Assembly: GCA_044356455.1 (NCBI GenBank)
Contig: JBIKWF010000002.1
Location: forward strand, 511 to 64,510
Direction of reading: 5' to 3'
Origin: Bdellovibrionota bacterium
GTDB taxonomy: Bacteria > Bdellovibrionota_C > UBA2361 > JBGSMV01
DNA: 64,000 nucleotides
In this document: positions 11,183 to 22,116 of the stretch, in pieces
Layout: every line of letters begins with the position of its first letter
Numbering within the stretch: position 1 is the stretch's first letter
Notes under the pieces: model-generated
Seen by the model: the letters and a program-made list of their open reading frames with translations, nothing else
Database searches by the model: none
Told to the model about the DNA's origin: nothing
Program-made: the position numbers and the translations under genes

Positions 11183-12424
11183 TCACAATTCAAGAGACTC
11201 AAGCGCACTTCCAAGCTGCTCTTCTAAGAACGTCTTCAGCTTCTCGCGCAATCGATTCTCAATCTGCCTCACTCGCTCGCGGCTCACGCCCACTTTTTCA
11301 GAAATTTCCTGCAGCGTTGCTTTCTCTTCCCCAAGCATTCGCTCGTTAAAGATGATTCGCTCCTTATCTTTCAGTGTTGCAGCAAAGTCCTCAAGGCCCT
11401 GTTTTAAGAGCGCCTGAGAACGGCGCTTATCAATGAGATCCTCGGCCGAAGACTCAGGTGAGGGCAACACGCCCAAGAGGGTAGCATCTGACTCAGCCCC
11501 TTGCAGGGGGGCATCCACGCTTACATCGGAAGAGCCAAGGCGCTGCTGCATTTCAACAACTTCGCTCTCCTTTACATTGAGCTTCTCAGCCAAAAGCTTC
11601 GGCGCGGCCACAAACCCTTCTCGCTCCAGGCGGTCTTTCTCCTTCTTCAAGTTAAAAAAGAGCTTTCTTTGGGCTTGGGTAGTACCAATCTTAACCATGC
11701 GCCAGTTCGCAATCAGATAGCGAACCATATAGGCTTTAATCCACCACACGGCGTAGGAGGGAAACCGGACACCGCGATAGGGGTCAAAATTCTTTACGGC
11801 CTCCATCAAACCGATATTCCCTTCCTGCACCAGATCAAGCAGCCCACGTGCGGCTTTTTCGTAGTCACGGGCAATTTTCACGACCAGCCACAAATTACTA
11901 GTAACAAGTCGGTACGCGGCCTCAACATCCTTGTCGCGCAAGTAGCGCACCCCTAATTCATGCTCTTCCTCTCTCGAAAGGGGAGGATAGGCGCGAATCT
12001 CTCGCAGATAGGCGGTCAAGGGATCGAACTGAGTAGGGGCCAGAGACTCCTGGCTGTCTGCGCCCTTAGCTCTTGCCCCTCGCGCCTTAAGCCCCGCTGC
12101 GGGTTCGTGCGTTGGCTCTGCCTCATCAGCGTCGAGGACCAGCTCAGCCCCACCCCCCTCTTCCTCGATGAGGTCGCCGGTATCTATATCGGTGGTCTCT
12201 ATATCTGTGGTCTCAAGAGGGGCAACTTCGATGACCTCCCCAAGGGCGTCTTCTGGAGTAACGGCCTCCTCGAGGCCTGGCTCGTCAGCAACAAGCTCCG
12301 CCTCCACGACTTCAGGCTGGGCGCTCTCAGGGTCTTTGCCCGCTCCCTTTGCGGCGCTCCGCCTTGGCGCATCCCGGCGTCCGCCCTCCGATTTAACCTG
12401 CTGCAATGACTTGTCTTTTTTCAT
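11183..12424 (-). CDS. rpoH: RNA polymerase sigma-32 (RpoH) family factor with acidic N-terminal extension
   Basis: DLVQEGNIGLM, YAVWWIKA, RpoH box QRKLFFNLK, VSRERVRQIE; start set at MKKDK. Confidence 0.9.
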   Translation of the reverse strand: MKKDKSLQQVKSEGGRRDAPRRSAAKGAGKDPESAQPEVVEAELVADEPGLEEAVTPEDALGEVIEVAPLETTDIETTDIDTGDLIEEEGGGAELVLDADEAEPTHEPAAGLKARGARAKGADSQESLAPTQFDPLTAYLREIRAYPPLSREEEHELGVRYLRDKDVEAAYRLVTSNLWLVVKIARDYEKAARGLLDLVQEGNIGLMEAVKNFDPYRGVRFPSYAVWWIKAYMVRYLIANWRMVKIGTTQAQRKLFFNLKKEKDRLEREGFVAAPKLLAEKLNVKESEVVEMQQRLGSSDVSVDAPLQGAESDATLLGVLPSPESSAEDLIDKRRSQALLKQGLEDFAATLKDKERIIFNERMLGEEKATLQEISEKVGVSRERVRQIENRLREKLKTFLEEQLGSALESLEL

Positions 12425-12522
12425 TTGCTCTTCAATGAGGCACTGCCGGCTCTGCGTGTGACAAAACTTCGTTAGTGCCAATCGCACCAATCTTTCAAGT
12501 TCTTACGCTGCTAGGCCGAATA

Positions 12523-12640: not shown

Positions 12641-14332
12641 ATGTCATCACGCATCGGAGAACTACTGGTTCGCACCGGACTTATTACGCCCGAGCAGCTG
12701 AACCACGCCAGCGAGGGACAAAAGGCTAATGGCGGGTTTCTGGGCTCCCATATCGTCAAACTTGGCTTCATGTCCGAGGAAGACCTGCTCCAGACCATAA
12801 GCCAGCAATACGGCGTCCCCATTATCGAGCTCAGCAATTGCCAATTCGAGCCCTCGATATTGCAGCTCGTTCCCCAGCCACTTGCGAGCAAGCACAACCT
12901 CGTCCCCGTCGTGCAAAAGGATCGCACGCTCACCATCGCGATGGCGGATCCCACCAATATCGTCGCCCTCAATGATGTGAAATTCATTACCGGGCTCGAC
13001 ATCCAGGTTGTTATTGCGCCTGAGCGCGAGGTCAAGGCCGCGCAAGAACGCGCCTATGAAGTGGGGGTCTCCTACGAAAACATTATTAGTGAGGTTGAGG
13101 AGGACGTTGAAGTCGTTGACACCTCGGACACCGTTGACGTAGCCGAGCTCGAACGCGCGACTGAAGATGCGCCGGTTGTAAAGCTGGTGAATGCCATTCT
13201 CACGGACGCAATTAAGAAAAATGCTTCAGATATTCATATCGAGCCCTACGAAAAGGCGTTTCGAGTGCGCTTTCGTATTGACGGTGTGCTTTATGAAATC
13301 ATGAAGCCGCCGCCTAAACTTAAGAATGCCATAACTTCGCGTATCAAGATCATGTCCGACATGGACATCGCCGAGCGCCGACTTCCCCAAGACGGCCGTA
13401 TCAAATTAAAGCTCGGACAGAGCCGAGAAATGGACTACCGCGTCAACGTTTTGCCTACGCTCTTTGGCGAAAAGGTGGTGCTTCGTCTCCTCGACAAGTC
13501 GAACTTGCAACTCGACATGACAAAACTTGGGTTTGAGGAAGGTCAGCTCAAAGATTTCAAAGAGGCAATCGCTAAGCCTCACGGCATGGTACTGGTGACG
13601 GGGCCCACAGGTTCCGGAAAGACCACGACTTTGTATTCCGCGCTCGCAGAACTCAACAAGAACACTACTAACATTAGCACTGCCGAGGACCCCGTCGAGT
13701 TTAACCTCGCCGGAATTAACCAAGCGCAAATGCACGATGAGATCGGCTTTAACTTCGCGGCTGCCCTGCGCGCCTTTTTGCGACAAGACCCCGATGTCAT
13801 CATGGTGGGTGAAATTCGAGACTACGAGACGGCTGAAATTGGAATTAAAGCCTCCCTTACGGGACACTTAGTACTCTCAACGCTCCACACCAACGACGCC
13901 CCCGCGACCATCAATCGCTTGCTCAACATGGGCGTAGAACCATTCCTCGTCGCTTCTTCGATTAACTTAATCATTGCCCAGAGACTTGCGCGGCGCGTAT
14001 GCAAAGAATGCGCCCAAGATGTTGAAGTTAACCCTGAGATCTTGGTGAACATCGGCATACCCGCCGCCGAGGCCCGTCACCTCAAACTCAAACAAGGCAA
14101 GGGCTGCGGTCGCTGCGCGAACACGGGCTACAAGGGCCGAATTGCGCTTTACGAGGTGATGCCGCTCAAAGAGGAAATTCGAGACTTCATTCTCAACGGC
14201 GCCTCAACTGCTGAAATCAAACGTGAATCCATTCGATTAGGAATGATGACTCTGCGCGCATCGGGACTTTTGCGCCTGAAAGAAGGTGTGACGACCGTTG
14301 AGGAGGTTCTTCGCGTAACCGCAGCTGATTAA
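12641..14332 (+). CDS. pilB: Type IV pilus assembly ATPase PilB
   Basis: MshEN-like N-terminus RIGELLVRTGLITPEQL; ASDIHIEP; GPTGSGKTT; LRQDPDVIMVGEIRD; CxxC...CxxC. Confidence 0.97.
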   Translation: MSSRIGELLVRTGLITPEQLNHASEGQKANGGFLGSHIVKLGFMSEEDLLQTISQQYGVPIIELSNCQFEPSILQLVPQPLASKHNLVPVVQKDRTLTIAMADPTNIVALNDVKFITGLDIQVVIAPEREVKAAQERAYEVGVSYENIISEVEEDVEVVDTSDTVDVAELERATEDAPVVKLVNAILTDAIKKNASDIHIEPYEKAFRVRFRIDGVLYEIMKPPPKLKNAITSRIKIMSDMDIAERRLPQDGRIKLKLGQSREMDYRVNVLPTLFGEKVVLRLLDKSNLQLDMTKLGFEEGQLKDFKEAIAKPHGMVLVTGPTGSGKTTTLYSALAELNKNTTNISTAEDPVEFNLAGINQAQMHDEIGFNFAAALRAFLRQDPDVIMVGEIRDYETAEIGIKASLTGHLVLSTLHTNDAPATINRLLNMGVEPFLVASSINLIIAQRLARRVCKECAQDVEVNPEILVNIGIPAAEARHLKLKQGKGCGRCANTGYKGRIALYEVMPLKEEIRDFILNGASTAEIKRESIRLGMMTLRASGLLRLKEGVTTVEEVLRVTAAD

Positions 14333-14397
14333 TGCAGCGAGAGAGGAAACTCCGGAGAGGATATCTACGATAAGAGAAACTTTAAACGAGGCCACAT

Positions 14398-15618
14398 ATG
14401 CCAGTTTTTGTTTGGGAAGGCACGAACAGCAAAGGGAAGAAGGTCCAAGGCGAACTAGAGGCCAAGGACATTCAATCTGTCTTTAATGTCTTAAAATCCC
14501 AGCGCGTGATTCCTAACGCCAAGACCATTCGCGAGAAAGGCAAAGGTCTTGAGATGGAGATCAAGATCCCAGGCTTTGGGCACTCCGTTAAAGGCCGCGA
14601 CATTGTAATTTTCACCAGACAATTCGCGACGATGATTGACGCGGGACTTCCCCTCGTACAAGCCTTCGATATTCTCGCCAAGCAGCATGAGAATCCTGCG
14701 TTCCGCAAAGTACTTCTTGGAATTAAGGAAGCCGTTGAGACGGGAGGCACACTCTCTGAGGGCATGGCAAAATTCCCCAAAGCCTTCGATGACCTCTACG
14801 TGAACATGGTGAACGCCGGTGAAAACGGCGGTATCCTCGACGTGATTCTCGACAGACTCGCGGTGCACCAAGAAAAAGCCATGAAGCTCAAGCGCGAAAT
14901 CAAGACGGCAATGATCTACCCTGCCGTAGTTATTTCAGCGGCTTTTATTGTTACTTCCGTGCTACTTATCTTCGTAATTCCGACTTTCGCAGAACTTTTC
15001 GCCGACTTCGGCGCGGCTCTGCCCCTACCAACGCAGCTTGTTATTAATCTTTCAAACTTTGTAGTTGGAAATGCGATTTTGATCTTTGGTTCAATATTTG
15101 GGTCACTCTTCGCATTATTCCGCTTCGCAAAAACTCCCCGAGGAAAGGAGGTACTCCACCCCATTTTCCTTAAGCTCCCCATTTTTGGCGACATTATTCG
15201 AAAAGTAGCAGTTGCTCGCTTTACTCGAACTTTGGGCACCATGCTCAGTTCTGGCGTGCCCATCCTTGATGCTCTCAACATCTGCGCCCGCACGGCAGGC
15301 AACAAAGTTGTTGAACGCGACGTGCAGCGCGCTCGTGTTGCCATTTCTGAGGGTAAATCAATGGTAGAACCCCTCTCAGAATCTTCAGTGTTCCCCGCGA
15401 TGGTGATTCAAATGATTGGCGTGGGAGAATCTACGGGTGCACTGGATGCCATGCTTCAAAAGATCGCAGATTTTTATGAAGAAGAAGTGGACAACGCCGT
15501 TGGCGCAATGAAGCAATTAATTGAGCCTCTCATGATTCTCGTCCTAGGTACGATTGTCGGAGCGCTTGTTATTGCCATGTACCTTCCCATTTTCAAAATG
15601 GGCTCGGTCGTCGGCTAA
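14398..15618 (+). CDS. pilC: Type IV pilus platform protein PilC (GspF family)
   Basis: [38 protein letters not shown]. Confidence 0.97.
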
Positions 15619-15637
15619 GAAGAGAGAGAGGAGCTGC

Positions 15638-17698
15638 GTGATTCGATCAGGGGCACAGAGCGCGTCAACAACTTCGGGAGCGAAGCTAACCTGGCTTCTC
15701 AGCGCCCGACTTGGCGTACTTCTTTTGGCCATGGTCTCCGTGCTTGGCTCCCTCGCCCTGATCGAGAGAGAGCACTACTCTGCGGCTCTGGGGCTCTTTT
15801 ATCCGCTTGGCTTCTTTCTCGCTGTCGGAGTGGGAAGCTGGTGGTGGCTCAAGACCCATCGGGCCTCGGAGAGATTTACCGCGACCCAGATTGGGCTCGA
15901 CATCGTGCTGGTCACAGGCATCGTCTACGTCACGGGGGGGCCAATTAGTCCCTTCCTCTTCTTGTATCTCCCCCTAGTAATGGCAGCGTCTCTGCTTCTT
16001 TCTCGAGGAGCAGCTCTCACTGCCGCCGCGGTAAGCTCTGTATCATACACTTTTCTTGCCACCGCGATGAAGACGGGATGGATTGGAACCTACACAGGGA
16101 CTGATGCCGTGCAGGTGCCCTCGGGAGGACTCCTTCTGCAGTCTATTGGCCTTTGTTCGGCAATGGTTCTTATTGCGGTGGCGACAAGTTATCTGGTGCA
16201 AACGATCTCAAAACGAGACGCCACCGTTGAGGAGTCCAAGCGCGACCTCGAACGCGGACTCTCGCGCCAAAAGCAGCTTATTCAGAGCATTCCTGAAGCA
16301 ATCTGCGTCGTTGATAAGAGCGGCAAAGTTTCGAGCGCGAACGCAACGGCCCTGCAACTGCTTGATAAGCCAGAGGACCAACTCGTCGGTAAGTCTCTTA
16401 TTACTGTTTTACAGAGTCTGGATTCTGACTTTTCTTTCGAGCAAAATTCTGATGACTTTTACGGAGAGCTTTCCTTTGAGCGGGAAGGCGCCGCCGAGCC
16501 CACCCGCATTCGTGTACACGGGCGACCGCTTCCTATTTCTTCTCACGAGAACGGCGAAACAGGCCACCTCGTAGTCTTGAACGACATTACCAAGCTGCGC
16601 TCGATTGAAGAGCAGCTTGAGCTTCAGGACCGCATGGCGCGCCTGCTGTCGAACACGAACGAGCCGCCGCCGTCGCTGCCACGCCGCTTGGGCGATTTCA
16701 TTGGCGAAAGCGTGGTGATGCAGAAGGTGTTTGGGCTAATTCAACGCGTCGCCCGCTCTGATGCGACCGTACTTGTGAACGGCGAATCCGGTACCGGTAA
16801 GGAACTCGTAGCCCGGGCCATTCATCAAGAGAGCCTCCGCGCCCGTGGGCCATTTGTCGCCGTCAACTGCGGAGCAATCCCCGAAACCTTGCTCGAAAGT
16901 GAATTCTTCGGCCACAAGAAAGGATCCTTTACGGGCGCCCAGGCGGATCATCCAGGACTTTTCCAGCGCGCGTCAGGAGGCACGCTCTTTCTTGATGAAA
17001 TTGGAGAGCTGCCAGTACTCATGCAGGCAAAGCTTCTCCGTGCGATTCAAGAACGATCCATTCGGCCGGTAGGAGGAGAGCGCGACCTTCCCATGGACGT
17101 ACGAATTGTGGCTGCCACGAATAGAAACTTACGCCGCGAAATTGAGTCAGGAAATTTCAGAGAAGACCTTTACTACCGCCTTAATGTTATCAGCATTAGC
17201 CTGCCGCCTCTTAAGGAACGCAAAGAGGACATACCCCTTCTTGTAAATGCAATCCTGCAGAGACTTCTCAAGCAATCGAGCAATGGGGAGGAAACGCCCA
17301 CTGCGGTAATTCCACCTCAAACCATGCAATTTTTGGTGAGCTACTCGTACCCAGGCAACGTTCGAGAACTCGAGAATATAATCGAACGAGCCTTCGTGCT
17401 TGGCGGCTCGGTGATTCTTCCTGAACATCTCCCTGAGGCAGTAAGAAACTCCCCTTCCGAACTTGAGCCAGTCGGTGAAAAGAGAGCACGCGGAGACACC
17501 CAAATAATCATAGATGAATCGATACAATTTCCCGTTGACCTTGATACGGTACTGGGAGTGATTGAAAGAAGATACCTCGAGGGAGCACTCTCTCAAACGG
17601 GCGGAGCAAAGAAAAAAGCTGCTGAGCTACTTGGCATCAACTTTCGTTCCTTTCGCTATCGCCTCCAGAAGTTTGGGCTTTCGGATGCTGAGGGCTGA
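15638..17698 (+). CDS. PilS(TM+PAS)-PilR(sigma54 AAA+ and HTH) fusion regulator
   Basis: PilS-like TM region ([27 protein letters not shown]), PAS, then [41 protein letters not shown] and a Fis-type HTH; no HisKA, HATPase or REC; GTG start after GAGGAG. Confidence 0.9.
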
Positions 17699-18065
17699 GG
17701 CCTTCTCAGTTCGCGCAATTTCATCAAGCATAGGCAATTCTCGTAGCATCGGCATCTTGCAGCGTTTGAGCGGCGCCGCGAGGATGCACCGCCCTACCTC
17801 GGGCCCGGCAGGGAGCCGCGTCCTCGCGCTTGTTTTTAAGCCCCTTGGGTGCCGTCTCCCGGCAGCCTTCCGCTTCGCTGGAGGCGCTGAGTTGCGCCAT
17901 TTTTCAAGACAGTTCTTGCACTTAGTGAATTCTCGCATTGCGGGCATCTTGCGGCATGTGAGCGGCGCCCTACCGGACCCGTGCCAGGGCGCCACATCTT
18001 CGCGGTGCCGAACAATCCCCGACAGGGCCACCACTTCCCAAAACTGAGCCGTTTTTCGTCCCAAA

Positions 18066-18127
18066 TGACAAAATTTGCGCCCTGTGCCGCACATTGTCAC
18101 CGCAAAACTGCATCTAACCCCTTGAAT
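18066..18127. promoter_or_regulatory. Candidate enhancer (TGACAA...TTGTCA) and IHF-like site upstream of the pilA promoter
   Basis: Inverted TGACAA (18066-18071) and TTGTCA (18094-18099); TAACCCCTTGAAT (18115-18127) is one mismatch from WATCAANNNNTTR on the minus strand. Confidence 0.4.
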
Positions 18128-18163
18128 TACATCTTTCCGAAAAAACTCTAAACCTTTTTTGGC

Positions 18164-18179
18164 TGGCATCCGACTTGCT
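18164..18179 (+). promoter_or_regulatory. Sigma54 (-24/-12) promoter of pilA
   Basis: TGGCATCCGACTTGCT fits TGGCAC-N5-TTGC with exact GG-N10-GC spacing. Confidence 0.85.
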
Positions 18180-18368
18180 CAGTACAGACAGACGGGAACG
18201 CTGCGGTAGCCTGCGCTCGGTTTAGAGCAGATGGCCCCCAACGCGTTTCGCCGGGAACACCGGGAAACTGGGGCCGGACGGGTAAGCGAAGCAACCTATT
18301 GAGAGGCTGCCAAGTCGTACCAAAAGGTTTTCGGTTCTTAACGTAATAGTAGGTAGGAGAAATTAATC

Positions 18369-18785
18369 ATGAAGAGAATGACGAAAGACGCTGGTTTTAC
18401 CCTCATTGAGTTGCTCGTAGTTGTTGCCATCATCGGCATCTTGGCTGCGATTGCTATTCCTCAGTTCGCTGAATATCGTGCTCGTGGATTTGACTCTCGT
18501 GCGCTTAGCGATCTCCGAAATGCAGCTACCGCCGAAGAGGCTTATTTCGCTGATAACGAAGTGTACAGGACCTGTGCGAACGCTACTGACTGTGCGACCG
18601 ACCTTCCTGGCTTCACCGCCTCCCTTGGCGTAGTAGTTGCCATGGCAGCTGTTGCTCCTAGCGGAACCACTCCTGCTAGCTTCACTGGTCAGTCTTCACA
18701 TCCTCAGGGCTCTGTGAATGGTACTGATGCCTGCTACAACTGGGACAACTCAGCTGGTGGTCTTGAAGCATCACGCGCTTGCTAA
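18369..18785 (+). CDS. pilA: Type IVa major pilin
   Basis: G|[22 protein letters not shown] prepilin motif; AGGAG RBS; four Cys; own promoter and terminator. Confidence 0.95.
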
Positions 18786-18812
18786 TCTGATAGGCTAGCA
18801 AGATAGAACACG

Positions 18813-18842
18813 AAAGAGCGGGCTTCGGCCCGCTCTTTTTTT
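18813..18842 (+). terminator. Intrinsic terminator after pilA
   Basis: AAAGAGCGGGC-TTCG-GCCCGCTC followed by a T-run. Confidence 0.9.
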
Positions 18843-18884
18843 GCTTAAAAATGAAACGGCATTGGCGGGTTGGTGTAGTAAAAC

Positions 18885-18911
18885 AACCACTAAGAACACA
18901 GAGACCACTAA
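18885..18911. repeat. ACCACTAAG-type repeat arm abutting element A
   Basis: AACCACTAAGAACACAGAGACCACTAA is identical to part of the right arm of the 55637 hairpin. Confidence 0.8.
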
Positions 18912-19130: not shown

Positions 19131-20069
19131 ATGCTCCGAGCGTTTACCATACTTGGGCTTTCGGCCGGCTTTCTCTTCCTTTGCTTACTCTCGGCATCAC
19201 GCCTCGAGAGCGCCCATGCGCGTCATTCTCAAGACGAGCAGCAGCTCGCAGAGTCTCTGTACTTGCCGCAAGCGGGCGCCGTTGCCGCTGCCAGCTTTGG
19301 CTACAAAAACGCACTTGCTCACCTACTCTGGTTTAAAACGATTAGTTATTTCGGGAAGGAATATCGGGGCTCTAAAAACTACCGCTGGCTTAGCCACATG
19401 TGCGAACTGGTAGTCGGCCTTTCTCCGCGTTCGGAGCATGTCTATCGCTTCTGCGGAACCATGCTGGCGTGGGAAGGAAATCAACCTGAGCTAAGCATTA
19501 GAATTCTGGACAAAGCAGTGAACCAGTTTCCCGAGAACTGGTACTTTCTCTATCTTCGGGGCTTTACCTTCATTTACTTTTTGCAGAATGAAGAAAGAGG
19601 GAACGCGGATATTATCGCTGCTGCCCAAAAGCCTGGAGCGCATCCTATTGTAATGAGACTTGCGGCGAAGAAACTTTCCGCGAGTCACAGCCCGGAAGCG
19701 GCAATTTCCTTCCTCCAAGGCGCGATAAGAATGACGGAGGACAGAGCAGCGCGGTCTGCCCTGCAAAGCAGGCTTACTGAAGCCTATTACGAACTGGGAT
19801 TTGAACTGATAGAAAGAGCGATCCAAAAGTTCCGCGCCTCTGAGGGCATACTCCCTCGCTCCCTAGAGGAGCTTGAGGGGAAGGGGCTAATTCCCCAAGA
19901 ATTGTCCCGAGAACACTATAAAGATCCCTTTGGTGGCAGGTATCAGCTCGACCCCTTAACTGGCACGGTGACAAGTTCAAGCGGAAAACCCCGAAATAGC
20001 GTGTCGTGGAATAAGCCTCACGCACCGGCGGGGAAGGCTCCCTCGTCCCCTGCTCCAGCGGAGAACTAA
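19131..20069 (+). CDS. Pilin-associated protein (Myxococcus PilG / Geobacter Xap-like position)
   Basis: N-terminal TM; helical TPR-like middle; C-terminal LPRSLEEL...DPFGGRY; lies between the pilin and an ABC transporter. Confidence 0.6.
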   Translation: MLRAFTILGLSAGFLFLCLLSASRLESAHARHSQDEQQLAESLYLPQAGAVAAASFGYKNALAHLLWFKTISYFGKEYRGSKNYRWLSHMCELVVGLSPRSEHVYRFCGTMLAWEGNQPELSIRILDKAVNQFPENWYFLYLRGFTFIYFLQNEERGNADIIAAAQKPGAHPIVMRLAAKKLSASHSPEAAISFLQGAIRMTEDRAARSALQSRLTEAYYELGFELIERAIQKFRASEGILPRSLEELEGKGLIPQELSREHYKDPFGGRYQLDPLTGTVTSSSGKPRNSVSWNKPHAPAGKAPSSPAPAEN

Positions 20070-20195
20070 GGTATCTCTGTAAAGTCCGCTCAGTGAACTC
20101 TGTGCCCTCTGTGGTTTTTACACAATTTAAATCAACCACAGAGGGCACAGAGTTCACTGAGAAAAAACAATATGGCGATGTTTCTCAGAGGTTCC
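20070..20195. mobile_element. MITE-like element family A, loop-inverted subtype
   Basis: GGTATCTCTGTAAA...TTTCTCAGAGGTTCC; begins directly after the CTAA that contains the upstream stop codon. Confidence 0.8.
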
Positions 20196-20324
20196 ATAAG
20201 AGCCCCCTGGATTGATCCACAAAATGACTTCTTCTCTCATCTTTAATCGTAATATCATTCGCCCCATGAAGCACCCACTCTCTGTGCCACAGTGGATTTC
20301 TATTCAGTGGAGTTCTATTGACAC

Positions 20325-21326
20325 ATGACCGAGTCCTTAGCTCTTGAAATTAGCTCGCTCTCCTACACCTACACCGAGGAGTGGACCCGTAAGACGCGTC
20401 AGGCCCTAAAGGAGGTGACTCTGGAGGTGAGGGAGGGAGAAGCGTTTGGCTTTCTTGGACACAACGGCGCAGGTAAAACGACTGCAATCAAGGCTATTTT
20501 AAACCTGATTGCGCCGCAGAAAGGCAGCATTAAGATCTTTGGCGAGTCCTCAAAGTCGCCGCGCGCCAGAAGGCAGATAGGCTACTTACCTGAGCAGCCC
20601 TATTTCTATGACTATCTGAGCGTACAGGAAACCGTAGAGCTCTACGCCTGCCTTGCTGAGGTGCCGCGCGACGTGCGCTCCCGCACCGTAGCTCAAACTC
20701 TTGAGAGAGTGGGTCTCGCCGAACGTGGGAAAGTGCGAATGCGCACGCTCTCCAAAGGCCTGACCCAGCGCGTCGCACTGGCCCAAGCCATAGTAGCAAA
20801 ACCAAAGCTTCTCATTCTTGATGAGCCTTTCTCTGGCCTTGACCCACTGGGGAGAAGGGAGTTTCGAACTATTCTCTCCGAACTCAAGTCGGGGGGCGCC
20901 ACCATTTTTATGTCGTCCCACATTCTAAGCGACGTAGAGTTCTTATGTGACCGCGCCTCAATTATGGTAAACGGCGCGCTTCGAGGGGTATTCGATCTCC
21001 ATGAGCGCCCCGCTGCTCTTTCAGGAACCGAGTTCGAACTCACCATCCAATCTTCTAAGGACGCCTCATCCATCGCGGGAGACGCGAACAGCCGCTATGA
21101 ACGCTCTGGCACGCTTCAGCGTTTCCGCTTTTCTGACCGCACTGGCGCAGAGCGCGCCTTGCACGCGGCTTTAACGCAAGGACTTGCCATCGAGTCTTAT
21201 GAAAGAAGGCAAATTTCGCTCGAAGAACTCTTCATGCAAATAGTCTCAGATTCAGGGGGTACCGCGGCAACTCAATCGAAACTAGAATCACCTACCGGAA
21301 CAGCTCATAGCGCTCCACGCTCATAA
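20325..21326 (+). CDS. ABC transporter ATP-binding protein (PilH-like)
   Basis: GHNGAGKTT, LSKG, LILDEPFSGLDP, SSHILSD. Confidence 0.9.
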   Translation: MTESLALEISSLSYTYTEEWTRKTRQALKEVTLEVREGEAFGFLGHNGAGKTTAIKAILNLIAPQKGSIKIFGESSKSPRARRQIGYLPEQPYFYDYLSVQETVELYACLAEVPRDVRSRTVAQTLERVGLAERGKVRMRTLSKGLTQRVALAQAIVAKPKLLILDEPFSGLDPLGRREFRTILSELKSGGATIFMSSHILSDVEFLCDRASIMVNGALRGVFDLHERPAALSGTEFELTIQSSKDASSIAGDANSRYERSGTLQRFRFSDRTGAERALHAALTQGLAIESYERRQISLEELFMQIVSDSGGTAATQSKLESPTGTAHSAPRS

Positions 21327-21342
21327 CTCCCTTGCCGACGCC

Positions 21343-22116
21343 ATGGAAAAGGTCTTTGCAATCACTCTCACTACCTACCGGGAACTTGTAAGAAGCAAGG
21401 TGCTCTATGCGGTCTTCTTCTTTGTCGCGGCACTGACACTCGTCGCTTCTGCGTTTGGATCGGTAACCATCGGAGATCAAATACTCGTCATTAAAGATTT
21501 CGGGCTCTTCAGCATCTCGCTTTGCAGTATCTCCTTTTCGACGATTGCAGGTGCGACCCTCCTCAAAAAAGAGCTCGAGAGGAAAACGATCTATAACATC
21601 CTCGCTAAGCCCGTTGAGCGCTGGCAGTTTGTACTCGGAAAGTTCTCTGGAATGACTCTCACCATTGGACTTACCATGCTGCTTATGATGGCCGGGCTTG
21701 AGACCTATCTTTTTTTGTTTCAGGGTCAGTTCGACGGGAGCCTCTGGCTAGCCCTCTATTTTTATTTTCTTGAAGTCCTGATTATCTGCGCGGCGAGCAT
21801 CTTCTTCTCTAGCATCGTGGTGACCCCCCTTCTGAGTGGTCTTTTCACCTTTGGCCTCTTTTTAGCGGGCAGATCGGTAGAGTATCTACTTTATTTTATT
21901 CAGGAAGGAACTCTTTCGGGGGTTGCTGCATCAATTTGTAAGGGGGCGTATGCCCTGCTGCCACACCTCTCGAAGCTACAAGTCGGAAACGAGATTGTGT
22001 TTGGTCAGCTCCCACCCCTCGCTTACGCGGGGTGGTGTGGTCTCTATGCAACTTCGTATGCGGGGATATTGCTTCTTCTCTCCGTGTTCTTTTTCCGGCG
22101 CAAGGAGTTTAACTAA
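21343..22116 (+). CDS. ABC-2 type permease (PilI-like)
   Basis: Multi-TM; KELERKTIYNILAKPVERWQFVLGKF; ends FRRKEF. Confidence 0.85.
   Translation: MEKVFAITLTTYRELVRSKVLYAVFFFVAALTLVASAFGSVTIGDQILVIKDFGLFSISLCSISFSTIAGATLLKKELERKTIYNILAKPVERWQFVLGKFSGMTLTIGLTMLLMMAGLETYLFLFQGQFDGSLWLALYFYFLEVLIICAASIFFSSIVVTPLLSGLFTFGLFLAGRSVEYLLYFIQEGTLSGVAASICKGAYALLPHLSKLQVGNEIVFGQLPPLAYAGWCGLYATSYAGILLLLSVFFFRRKEFN

Follow-up and report, generated by a model that had tools for sequence, protein, structure and literature searches.

A PilS-PilR fusion without phosphotransfer domains: a putative membrane-integral sigma-54 activator of pilA in Bdellovibrionota

The 64,000-nucleotide stretch analyzed here (the window; contig JBIKWF010000002.1 of a Bdellovibrionota bacterium, assembly GCA_044356455.1) carries a type IV pilus (T4P) gene cluster in which a single gene lies between pilC and pilA. 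In this gene the sensor half of the histidine kinase PilS is joined in frame to the sigma-54 AAA+ and helix-turn-helix (HTH) half of its response regulator PilR. As no HisKA, HATPase_c or receiver (REC) domain is present, phosphotransfer is impossible in the fusion, and because one chain comprises both sensor and activator, the latter is integral to the membrane. We read the gene as a membrane-integral one-component form of PilS-PilR activating pilA, with a probability of about 0.6 for this statement taken whole. That it encodes a sigma-54 activator of pilA which descends from PilS-PilR and works without phosphorylation is very probable, and pilin as its signal, proposed by analogy with PilS, is a tentative assignment, slightly more likely wrong than right.

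The fused pilS-pilR gene is a single open frame on the plus strand in the list of open reading frames (ORFs), ending at 17698 and opening at either TTG 15554 or GTG 15638. The GTG lies past the stop codon of pilC and has a Shine-Dalgarno sequence 4 nt 5' of it, and the database cluster that is 100% identical to the window protein has a length of 686 aa; 15638 to 17698 was therefore adopted as the gene. Its features are as follows.

15629 to 15633, plus strand: Shine-Dalgarno sequence AGGAG, read from the sequence
15638 to 17698, plus strand: fused pilS-pilR gene, 686 aa (ORF, Pfam and identical cluster)
15668 to 16207, plus strand: six-helix PilS-type transmembrane (TM) domain, residues 11-190 (Pfam 6TM_PilS, AlphaFold2 helices, charges and shared motif)
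16271 to 16585, plus strand: PAS domain, residues 212-316 (Pfam PAS/PAS_7 and AlphaFold2 strands 221-316)
16589 to 16648, plus strand: signaling helix, residues 318-337, the PAS-to-DHp remnant of PilS (AlphaFold2 and alignment with 40 PilS kinases)
16649 to 16696, plus strand: junction linker, residues 338-353 (predicted local distance difference test, pLDDT, below 50 at 339-348; variable alignment columns)
16697 to 17464, plus strand: sigma-54 AAA+ domain and lid, residues 354-609 (Sigma54_activat 1.8e-72, AAA_lid_14)
16781 to 16804, 16922 to 16939 and 16985 to 16999, plus strand: Walker A, GSFTGA and Walker B, by motif reading
17558 to 17674, plus strand: Fis-type HTH DNA-binding domain, residues 641-679 (Pfam HTH_8 1.2e-11, present in 20 of 20 members)

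Using Pfam, 6TM_PilS (residues 16-193), PAS (212-300; PAS_7 to 324), Sigma54_activat (355-520), AAA_lid_14 (526-609) and HTH_8 (641-679) were recognized in the 686-aa protein, and no match to HisKA, HATPase_c or Response_reg was found at an E value of ≤0.01. The gap between PAS and AAA+ is just 37 residues (317-353), so none of the three missing domains can be hidden in it. An earlier note on this DNA, made from the letters alone, had described PilS-like TM helices and a PAS domain followed by a helix, then an intact AAA+ domain and HTH, with HisKA, HATPase and REC all absent, and the domain scan agrees with it throughout. Walker A (GESGTGKE, 382-389), GSFTGA (429-434) and Walker B (LFLDE, 450-454) were located and are invariant in all 20 full-length family members; the GSFTGA variant of the sigma-54-contact loop also occurs in Azomonas PilR. 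An AlphaFold2 model based on a 20-sequence alignment (mean pLDDT 79.9, predicted template modeling score 0.41) places membrane helices at residues 11-41, 44-73, 78-99, 105-120, 123-146 and 162-217, the sixth extending into the cytoplasm up to residue 217, followed by a PAS fold (221-316), a helix (318-337), a low-confidence stretch (339-348) and the AAA+ domain. Charged residues indicate an N-in/C-in topology with very short periplasmic loops. The TM3-TM4 hairpin motif TGGxxSPFLFLY is common to fusions and PilS kinases, and the helix after PAS has the family consensus DVTxLRxxEEQLExQERMARLLA. The Pro-rich stretch of the linker lies at nucleotides 16649 to 16690, where the earlier note had put it, but its Pro-rich sequence is confined to the window protein and that of a congener; what is retained family-wide is the approximate linker length. 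When the model was compared with the PDB using Foldseek, the matches were the AAA+ domains of the sigma-54 activators ZraR, FlrC, FleQ and NtrC1 (inactive and active), and the whole model gave no match there for the TM/PAS half.

By domain content the protein is thus one of the bacterial enhancer-binding proteins (bEBPs) and neither a histidine kinase nor a response regulator. It has the Sigma54_activat domain with both Walker motifs, a GAFTGA-type loop, and rpoN with a plausible -24/-12 target in the same genome. From PilS it has the six-helix TM domain followed by PAS and lacks the HisKA box and HATPase_c; from PilR it has an orthologous, pil-linked AAA+/HTH module and lacks the receiver domain with its phospho-acceptor aspartate.

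To trace the two halves, database searches and trees were used. Searching for loci with the window protein returned only AAA+ (PilR) matches, and the N-terminal half (349 aa) was therefore searched alone against 1.84 billion representatives, giving 447 hits at E ≤ 1e-10. The 35 longest or near-longest of the best 150 hits were scanned by Pfam together with the window protein; 34 of these 36 sequences are sigma-54 activators with HTH_8 and two are kinases, and Response_reg was found in none of the 34 (33 representatives and the window protein). The family thus comprises at least 33 clusters at 50% identity, which belong to two phyla. Another 40 hits, chosen at 528 to 602 aa, are PilS-type kinases, as 6TM_PilS and HisKA were found in all of them and HATPase_c in 39. 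Their alignment to the window protein extends to residue 335-336, with the kinase phospho-histidine about 8 residues beyond, in keeping with the earlier statement that this helix leads toward the HisKA H-box in PilS. Over the helix region the 40 kinases have the consensus FQDLTE....E.E.R...RLAA.GELAAG.AHEIRNPL, and as judged from this alignment the PAS-to-DHp helix is retained in the fusion together with the initial turns of DHp.

The C-terminal half is 50% identical (E 1e-100) to Azomonas macrocytogenes PilR, with the match starting at PilR residue 133, just past the receiver, and among the 80 genomic loci that match the protein best, 66 have a PilS-like kinase directly 5'. Nine further activator-like frames in the own genome share no more than 46% identity with the fusion; a REC profile built here was positive in six of these paralogues and negative in the fusion, and a quick IQ-TREE analysis placed the fusions and PilRs apart from them with a support of 98. 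In a FastTree analysis of 83 rows covering the AAA+/HTH part, the 36 rows that are fusions all fell on one side of a branch with a support of 96, a Binatia-like group was the sister of the Bdellovibrionota group, and the nearest neighbors were canonical PilRs linked to pilC. With the N-terminal half being the sensor of PilS kinases and the C-terminal half grouping with pilC-linked PilRs, the earlier proposal of a PilS-PilR fusion without phosphotransfer is upheld. The FastTree topology, obtained by a fast method, would fit a single old origin of the fusion.

The fusion follows pilB and pilC in a run of three genes.

12641 to 14332, plus strand: pilB, T4P extension ATPase, first in the pilB-pilC-fusion run (Pfam T2SSE 5.6e-144, MshEN; syntenic in relatives)
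14398 to 15618, plus strand: pilC, T4P platform protein (Pfam T2SSF 2e-70)

To identify what occupies this slot elsewhere, the 80 best PilC matches among species-representative genomes were taken and the region 3' of each was scanned with profiles built here. A PilS kinase followed by a REC-AAA+ regulator was found at 37 loci and a PilS kinase with no same-strand regulator seen within the locus at 25; six loci carried a fusion, one a split fusion, one a regulator alone and 10 nothing (five of them with less than 1.4 kb of room). As a PilS kinase stands right 3' of pilC at 62 of the 80 loci, the fusion takes exactly the pilS-pilR place, and the intact frame had been correctly assigned to that position. 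At canonical loci the end of the sensor part lies around residue 316-345 and the AAA+ part of the regulator starts around residue 142; in the fusions 15 to 20 residues separate the two, and one in-frame deletion of about 1.1 kb would be the simplest history. Such a loss, in an ancestral adjacent pilS-pilR pair, would have run from the phospho-histidine box of PilS through the receiver of PilR, joining the PilS sensor (six TM helices, PAS and the first DHp turns) to the PilR AAA+/HTH part through a linker that is short and flexible. In this survey, the records of four of the six fusions bear the titles Deltaproteobacteria, Proteobacteria or Candidatus Binatia, and their PilC is 55 to 58% identical to that of the window, and in a further Binatia contig (L153) a pilT-like gene and pilC are followed by a 6TM_PilS-PAS-Sigma54 frame. 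One Lysobacteraceae metagenome-assembled genome (locus L027) has a 1,007-aa frame with its AAA+ match from residue 674, which may be a full-length PilS-PilR read-through fusion with kinase and receiver or an over-extended frame.

The junction was checked in contigs of four metagenome runs other than the possible source runs, the stretch being present in many lake-water runs; among the runs listed with it, none is recorded as RNA. Contigs of two of the four (X3, 16490-17405; X5, 16424-16893) bridge the helix-linker-AAA+ junction with 0 differences, and in the remaining two the contig breaks at the junction. The region 3' of pilC was then classified at 37 pilC loci, taken from 36 relatives within the order, where the pilC orthologues immediately 5' of the fusion share 65 to 88% identity. 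A full-length fusion of 657 to 705 aa was present at 19 loci, a shorter form of 516 to 594 aa at six, a fusion split into two frames inside PAS at one and an N-terminal piece ended by the contig edge at two; six loci had no regulator at that place (among them L126 and L120 of family f2 and L121, L123 and L125 of family f7) and three had no room on the contig. The fusion gene, in any form, thus fills the pilC-X-pilA slot at 28 of the 37 loci, and a separate kinase and response regulator, which according to the earlier note would have spoken for an artefact or private deletion, follow pilC at none of them. Among 20 full-length members Pfam recognized Sigma54_activat and HTH_8 in 20, PAS in 18 and 6TM_PilS in 15, and HisKA, HATPase_c or Response_reg in none. 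At one short-form locus (L099:4721-6445) 6TM_PilS and an EEQL..Q.MARLL helix are joined straight to AAA+ without PAS; the other five short forms have N termini that Pfam does not recognize and that are partly hydrophobic. The split gene (L111:4725-6796, the same as L234, in relative G021) consists of frames of 286 and 404 aa with the break inside PAS, which may reflect a frameshift, a sequencing error or a real split.

Across the phylum, 66 of 124 genomes have a match to the N-terminal half at E ≤ 1e-6, for the most part in frames 660 to 790 aa long, and all eight loci sampled in other orders read pilB-pilC-fusion (670 to 720 aa), with pilA next in five; architecture and synteny are thus shared by relatives, as the earlier note's reading entailed. 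The large family f8 gave just three weak N-half matches in 36 genomes; in five f8 genomes searched with the C-terminal half, the activators at the loci scanned were short or of the REC type, and a TM fusion was absent. Family members in public sources are named "Bdellovibrionales bacterium," the Atlas cluster holding the window protein is mostly Bdellovibrionota, and a 68-member Atlas cluster with the same architecture is mostly Candidatus Binatota.

The genome encodes rpoN, and the elements that make pilA the presumed target are the following.

18066 to 18099, no strand: putative enhancer or upstream activating sequence, two 15-nt sites (palindrome counts over 17 loci)
18164 to 18179, plus strand: sigma-54 promoter, -24 GG and -12 GC (conserved upstream of pilA, rpoN in genome)
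18369 to 18785, plus strand: pilA, type IVa major pilin, presumed target (Pfam N_methyl, orthologue alignment)
18812 to 18839, plus strand: terminator-like hairpin 3' of pilA

The -24/-12 element reads TGGCATCCGACTTGCT at 18164-18179 (TGGCATCCGACTTGC at 18164-18178) and lies 205 nt 5' of the pilA ATG. A clear sigma-54 promoter had been claimed before pilA; taken alone, the match is no better than chance in 64 kb (4.1 expected at one mismatch), but of the 18 pilA upstream regions examined, 17 have a site matching at least 9 of the 11 consensus positions, which in most cases reads TGGCAYCCGAYTTGCT, and it is for this conservation that the promoter is considered real. By reading the 450 nt 5' of pilA promoters, a conserved palindrome, TGACA-N5-TGTCA, was found, usually in two copies 17 to 39 nt apart (start to start) and starting 69 to 140 nt before the -24 element. 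Allowing up to two mismatches, 25 palindromes were observed in the 200 nt upstream at 17 loci, versus 1.5 expected from shuffles, with at least one at 15 of the loci. The window sites, TGACAAAATTTGCGC (18066-18080, three mismatches) and TGCCGCACATTGTCA (18085-18099, two mismatches), occupy the region 65 to 98 nt before the -24 element, and the congener has a similar half-degenerate pair. The genome has 21 strict sigma-54 promoter strings; a palindrome-like site (two mismatches) lies within 250 nt upstream of four of them, and the paired family arrangement occurs at pilA alone. At locus L126, which has no adjacent regulator, pilA directly follows pilC and the promoter is retained but the palindrome was not seen; another activator must therefore serve pilA there.

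Further features of the spacer between the fusion gene and pilA were noted. A CTAAA box (window 18148-18152) stands exactly 16 nt before the promoter TGGCA at 11 of 17 loci, with CTCAA at two more, and may be an extra promoter element or the site of another factor. A 47-nt direct repeat (17731-17777 and 17923-17969; copies 77% identical, 192 nt apart) was considered as an enhancer and rejected, being found neither in the congener's spacer nor anywhere else in the genome. A search of window positions 17600 to 18900 against Rfam gave only sub-threshold matches, on the pilA terminator. The NCBIfam model for Myxococcus PilA is the top match of the pilA protein, below its cut-off.

We propose the following working for the fusion. 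The protein would be produced from the pilB-pilC transcription unit, its HTH would bind the tandem TGACA-N5-TGTCA sites about 70 to 140 nt upstream of the pilA sigma-54 promoter, and its AAA+ ring would open that promoter by ATP hydrolysis. Activity would be set without phosphorylation, by a conformational signal passed from the TM/PAS part to the helical stub, which would decide whether the AAA+ domains are held as inactive dimers or form the active ring. In NtrC1-type activators, the helix before AAA+ holds inactive dimers until a signal arrives; the stub, a dimeric coiled coil in kinases, may be a gate of this type, and the short flexible linker would allow ring closure by three dimers. As with PilS, the signal is most likely how much pilin the inner membrane contains. 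Passages of a study of Pseudomonas aeruginosa state that the six TM segments of PilS interact with PilA and that pilA deletion leaves PilR hyperactive (PMC6058289), and by this analogy pilin would switch the fusion off. The earlier note had similarly suggested TM sensing of pilin, allosteric action on AAA+ assembly and an enhancer held at the membrane, which we infer from the same analogy. A predicted complex of the TM domain (1-215) with mature PilA (10-138) scored 0.00, which speaks neither for nor against binding, and the N-terminal helix of PilA does not vary among 15 orthologues, an observation neutral as to its binding to the TM domain.

With six TM helices in the activator, the control region of pilA has to reach the membrane, unless the output half is first cleaved away. 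A bolder version, which we regard as doubtful, is that the active ring forms within the inner-membrane plane with a six-helix pilin sensor on each subunit, that the pilA enhancer and promoter are drawn to the membrane, and that free pilin disassembles the ring. If so, the enhancer would possibly lie at the piliated pole, with transcription, translation and insertion of pilin beside the sensor that counts it, and pilin would shut its gene off directly, with no phosphorylation step. The protein would then be the first membrane-embedded bEBP motor and a long-kept reversal from two components to one in two phyla.

Several observations weigh against the proposed reading. We know of no characterized precedent for a bEBP ring of six-TM subunits acting on DNA at the membrane, and for this reason the fusion may need prior release. 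In the six short forms (L099, L102, L110, L113, L116 and L118; 516 to 594 aa) PAS went undetected in five and was weak in the sixth, so the PAS step appears dispensable in some lineages, and 6TM_PilS was recognized in L099 alone. The palindromes of the window are degenerate, and at two of the 17 promoter-bearing loci, one of which has a short-form regulator, no palindrome with up to two mismatches was present. The gammaproteobacterial kinase behind the pilin-sensing analogy shares only 28% identity with the fusion, over part of the TM/PAS region, and both trees have long paralogue branches.

Alternatively, the membrane form might be an inactive, stored precursor from which regulated proteolysis in the linker frees a soluble AAA+-HTH activator that works in the cytoplasm as an ordinary bEBP does. 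The linker is predicted to be disordered (pLDDT below 50 at 339-348) and is variable in sequence, and holding at the membrane silences a bEBP elsewhere: according to passages on RedR2, this activator is sequestered by the membrane protein BtdS (PMC10084136). However, the 20-member alignment has no conserved cleavage motif in the linker, the relatives' loci have no protease gene conserved in the cluster, and a constitutive free fragment would forfeit the reversibility of the sensor, and we hold this explanation to be quite improbable. Rather less so, though still unlikely, is that the TM domain is a mere anchor or localization device and PAS senses a cytoplasmic signal (a metabolite, redox state or partner), leaving pilin uninvolved. 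PAS is found in 18 of the 20 full-length members, activators with PAS-AAA+-HTH and no membrane domain are common among the Atlas clusters, and the title of a paper by Ethier and Boyd (2000) ascribes the polar targeting of PilS to its TM domain. Against this, six relatives lack a clearly recognizable PAS, one of them (L099) keeping 6TM_PilS and the helix joined to AAA+, and the most conserved residues outside AAA+ are those of the TM3-TM4 hairpin motif common to PilS kinases, a constraint exceeding what an anchor needs.

That the protein regulates other or additional genes, its adjacency to pilA being historical, would suit the degenerate palindromes of the window and the control of further genes by PilR of P. 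aeruginosa that parts of PMC6058289 describe; it is very improbable given that the paired palindromes stand at pilA alone among the 21 strict sigma-54 strings and that different families keep both promoter and palindromes upstream of pilA. The gene split inside PAS in relative G021 would suit an artefact of assembly, a private deletion or a pseudogene in decay. For the window gene these possibilities are refuted, the chance left to them being negligible, because independent contigs bridge the junction and because the architecture, with invariant catalytic motifs, is conserved across two phyla; the fusion is neither an assembly artefact nor a private deletion.

Compared with known systems, the proposed membrane-integral activator is closest to PilS-PilR, the circuit of P. 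aeruginosa and many T4P bacteria, with which it shares the 6TM_PilS and PAS sensor, the sigma-54 AAA+ domain with GSFTGA, the Fis-type HTH, the sigma-54-dependent pilA and the gene position after pilC. It differs in having no HisKA, HATPase_c or REC and in having sensor and activator in one membrane-integral chain. With NtrC1, DctD and NtrC4-type bEBPs (PDB 1ny5, 1ny6 and 3dzd) it shares the AAA+ fold and a helix and linker before it, but its helix is a kinase DHp stub fed by the TM/PAS part rather than receiver-derived, and it is embedded in the membrane. ToxR and CadC are membrane-integral one-component activators with sensor, membrane span and DNA-binding domain in one chain, and as with them promoter DNA must meet the protein at the membrane; they have one TM helix, an OmpR-type winged helix, sigma-70 promoters and no ATPase ring, whereas the fusion has six TM helices, HTH_8 and a sigma-54 AAA+ motor and, although its working may resemble theirs, is not of their class. 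In the PspF-PspA system, a partner at the membrane controls a soluble bEBP, which is inactive for as long as it is held there. The membrane state likewise governs the sigma-54 activator in RedR2-BtdS (PMC10084136), where the activator is also soluble and silent during its retention at the membrane; in the fusion, the membrane domain is part of the activator.

In a full-text search of the literature, no paper was found that describes a PilS-PilR fusion or a membrane-integral bEBP. The 2020 review of bEBPs (PMC7175178), in the portions consulted, lists types of regulatory domain with no membrane-integral one among them and has the word "membrane" once, in another sense. For Bdellovibrio HD100, pilS and pilR are spoken of as separate genes in passages of PMC4237445 and PMC13147790. 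Sequence databases list the family under the automatic names "sigma 54-interacting transcriptional regulator" and "response regulator PilR." The earlier suggestion of an undescribed system thus stands as far as the literature searched is concerned, but the system is not peculiar to the window genome.

The surroundings of the cluster were also compared with those in relatives. Divergent from pilB, on the minus strand (window 11183-12490), lies a gene of the sigma-70 family whose product has a long, acidic extension at its N terminus, and the gene keeps its position 5' of pilB in most relatives. No pilT is present between pilB and pilC (14332-14398); a PilT-like gene lies there in locus L134 and before pilC in the Binatia contig L153. 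Following pilA (19131-22116) are a 312-aa ORF without a Pfam match, an ABC ATPase and a multi-helix permease, which are conserved after pilA in relatives, the first two in several orders. By position, the three genes recall Myxococcus pilG-pilH-pilI, and they may be their counterparts; PilGHI are thought to be ABC-transport proteins, as stated in part of PMC6060248.

Apart from the fusion, no frame of the own genome gave a full TM and PAS match to PilS. Its other 6TM_PilS proteins are kinases of 421 to 443 aa without PAS (C204:16411-17673, C209:13016-14320 and C202:12662-13990). The two of these kinases whose loci were read (L002 and L003) adjoin regulators of 172 to 175 aa with REC and a Fis-type HTH, pairs that are presumably RegB/RegA-like.

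PilS-PilR is the textbook circuit by which pilin synthesis is matched to the pool of pilin in the membrane. Whole lineages appear to have dropped its kinase, phosphatase and receiver parts and to have wired the sensor straight to the ATPase, and one of the lineages bearing the fusion is the phylum whose named records are Bdellovibrionota. Type IV pili are required by Bdellovibrio for predation, according to the abstract of PMC4237445. If our reading holds, the family would be a long-kept reversal from two components to one, at the pilin gene, in a motor protein that needs to oligomerize. It would provide a natural minimal system in which to ask how a six-helix membrane sensor transmits its signal, how assembly of a bEBP ring is gated without phosphorylation, whether a sigma-54 activator can work while embedded in the membrane, and where in the cell the pilin gene is transcribed. 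As a compact, kinase-free module leading from sensor to promoter, it could be tested in Escherichia coli, which has sigma-54.

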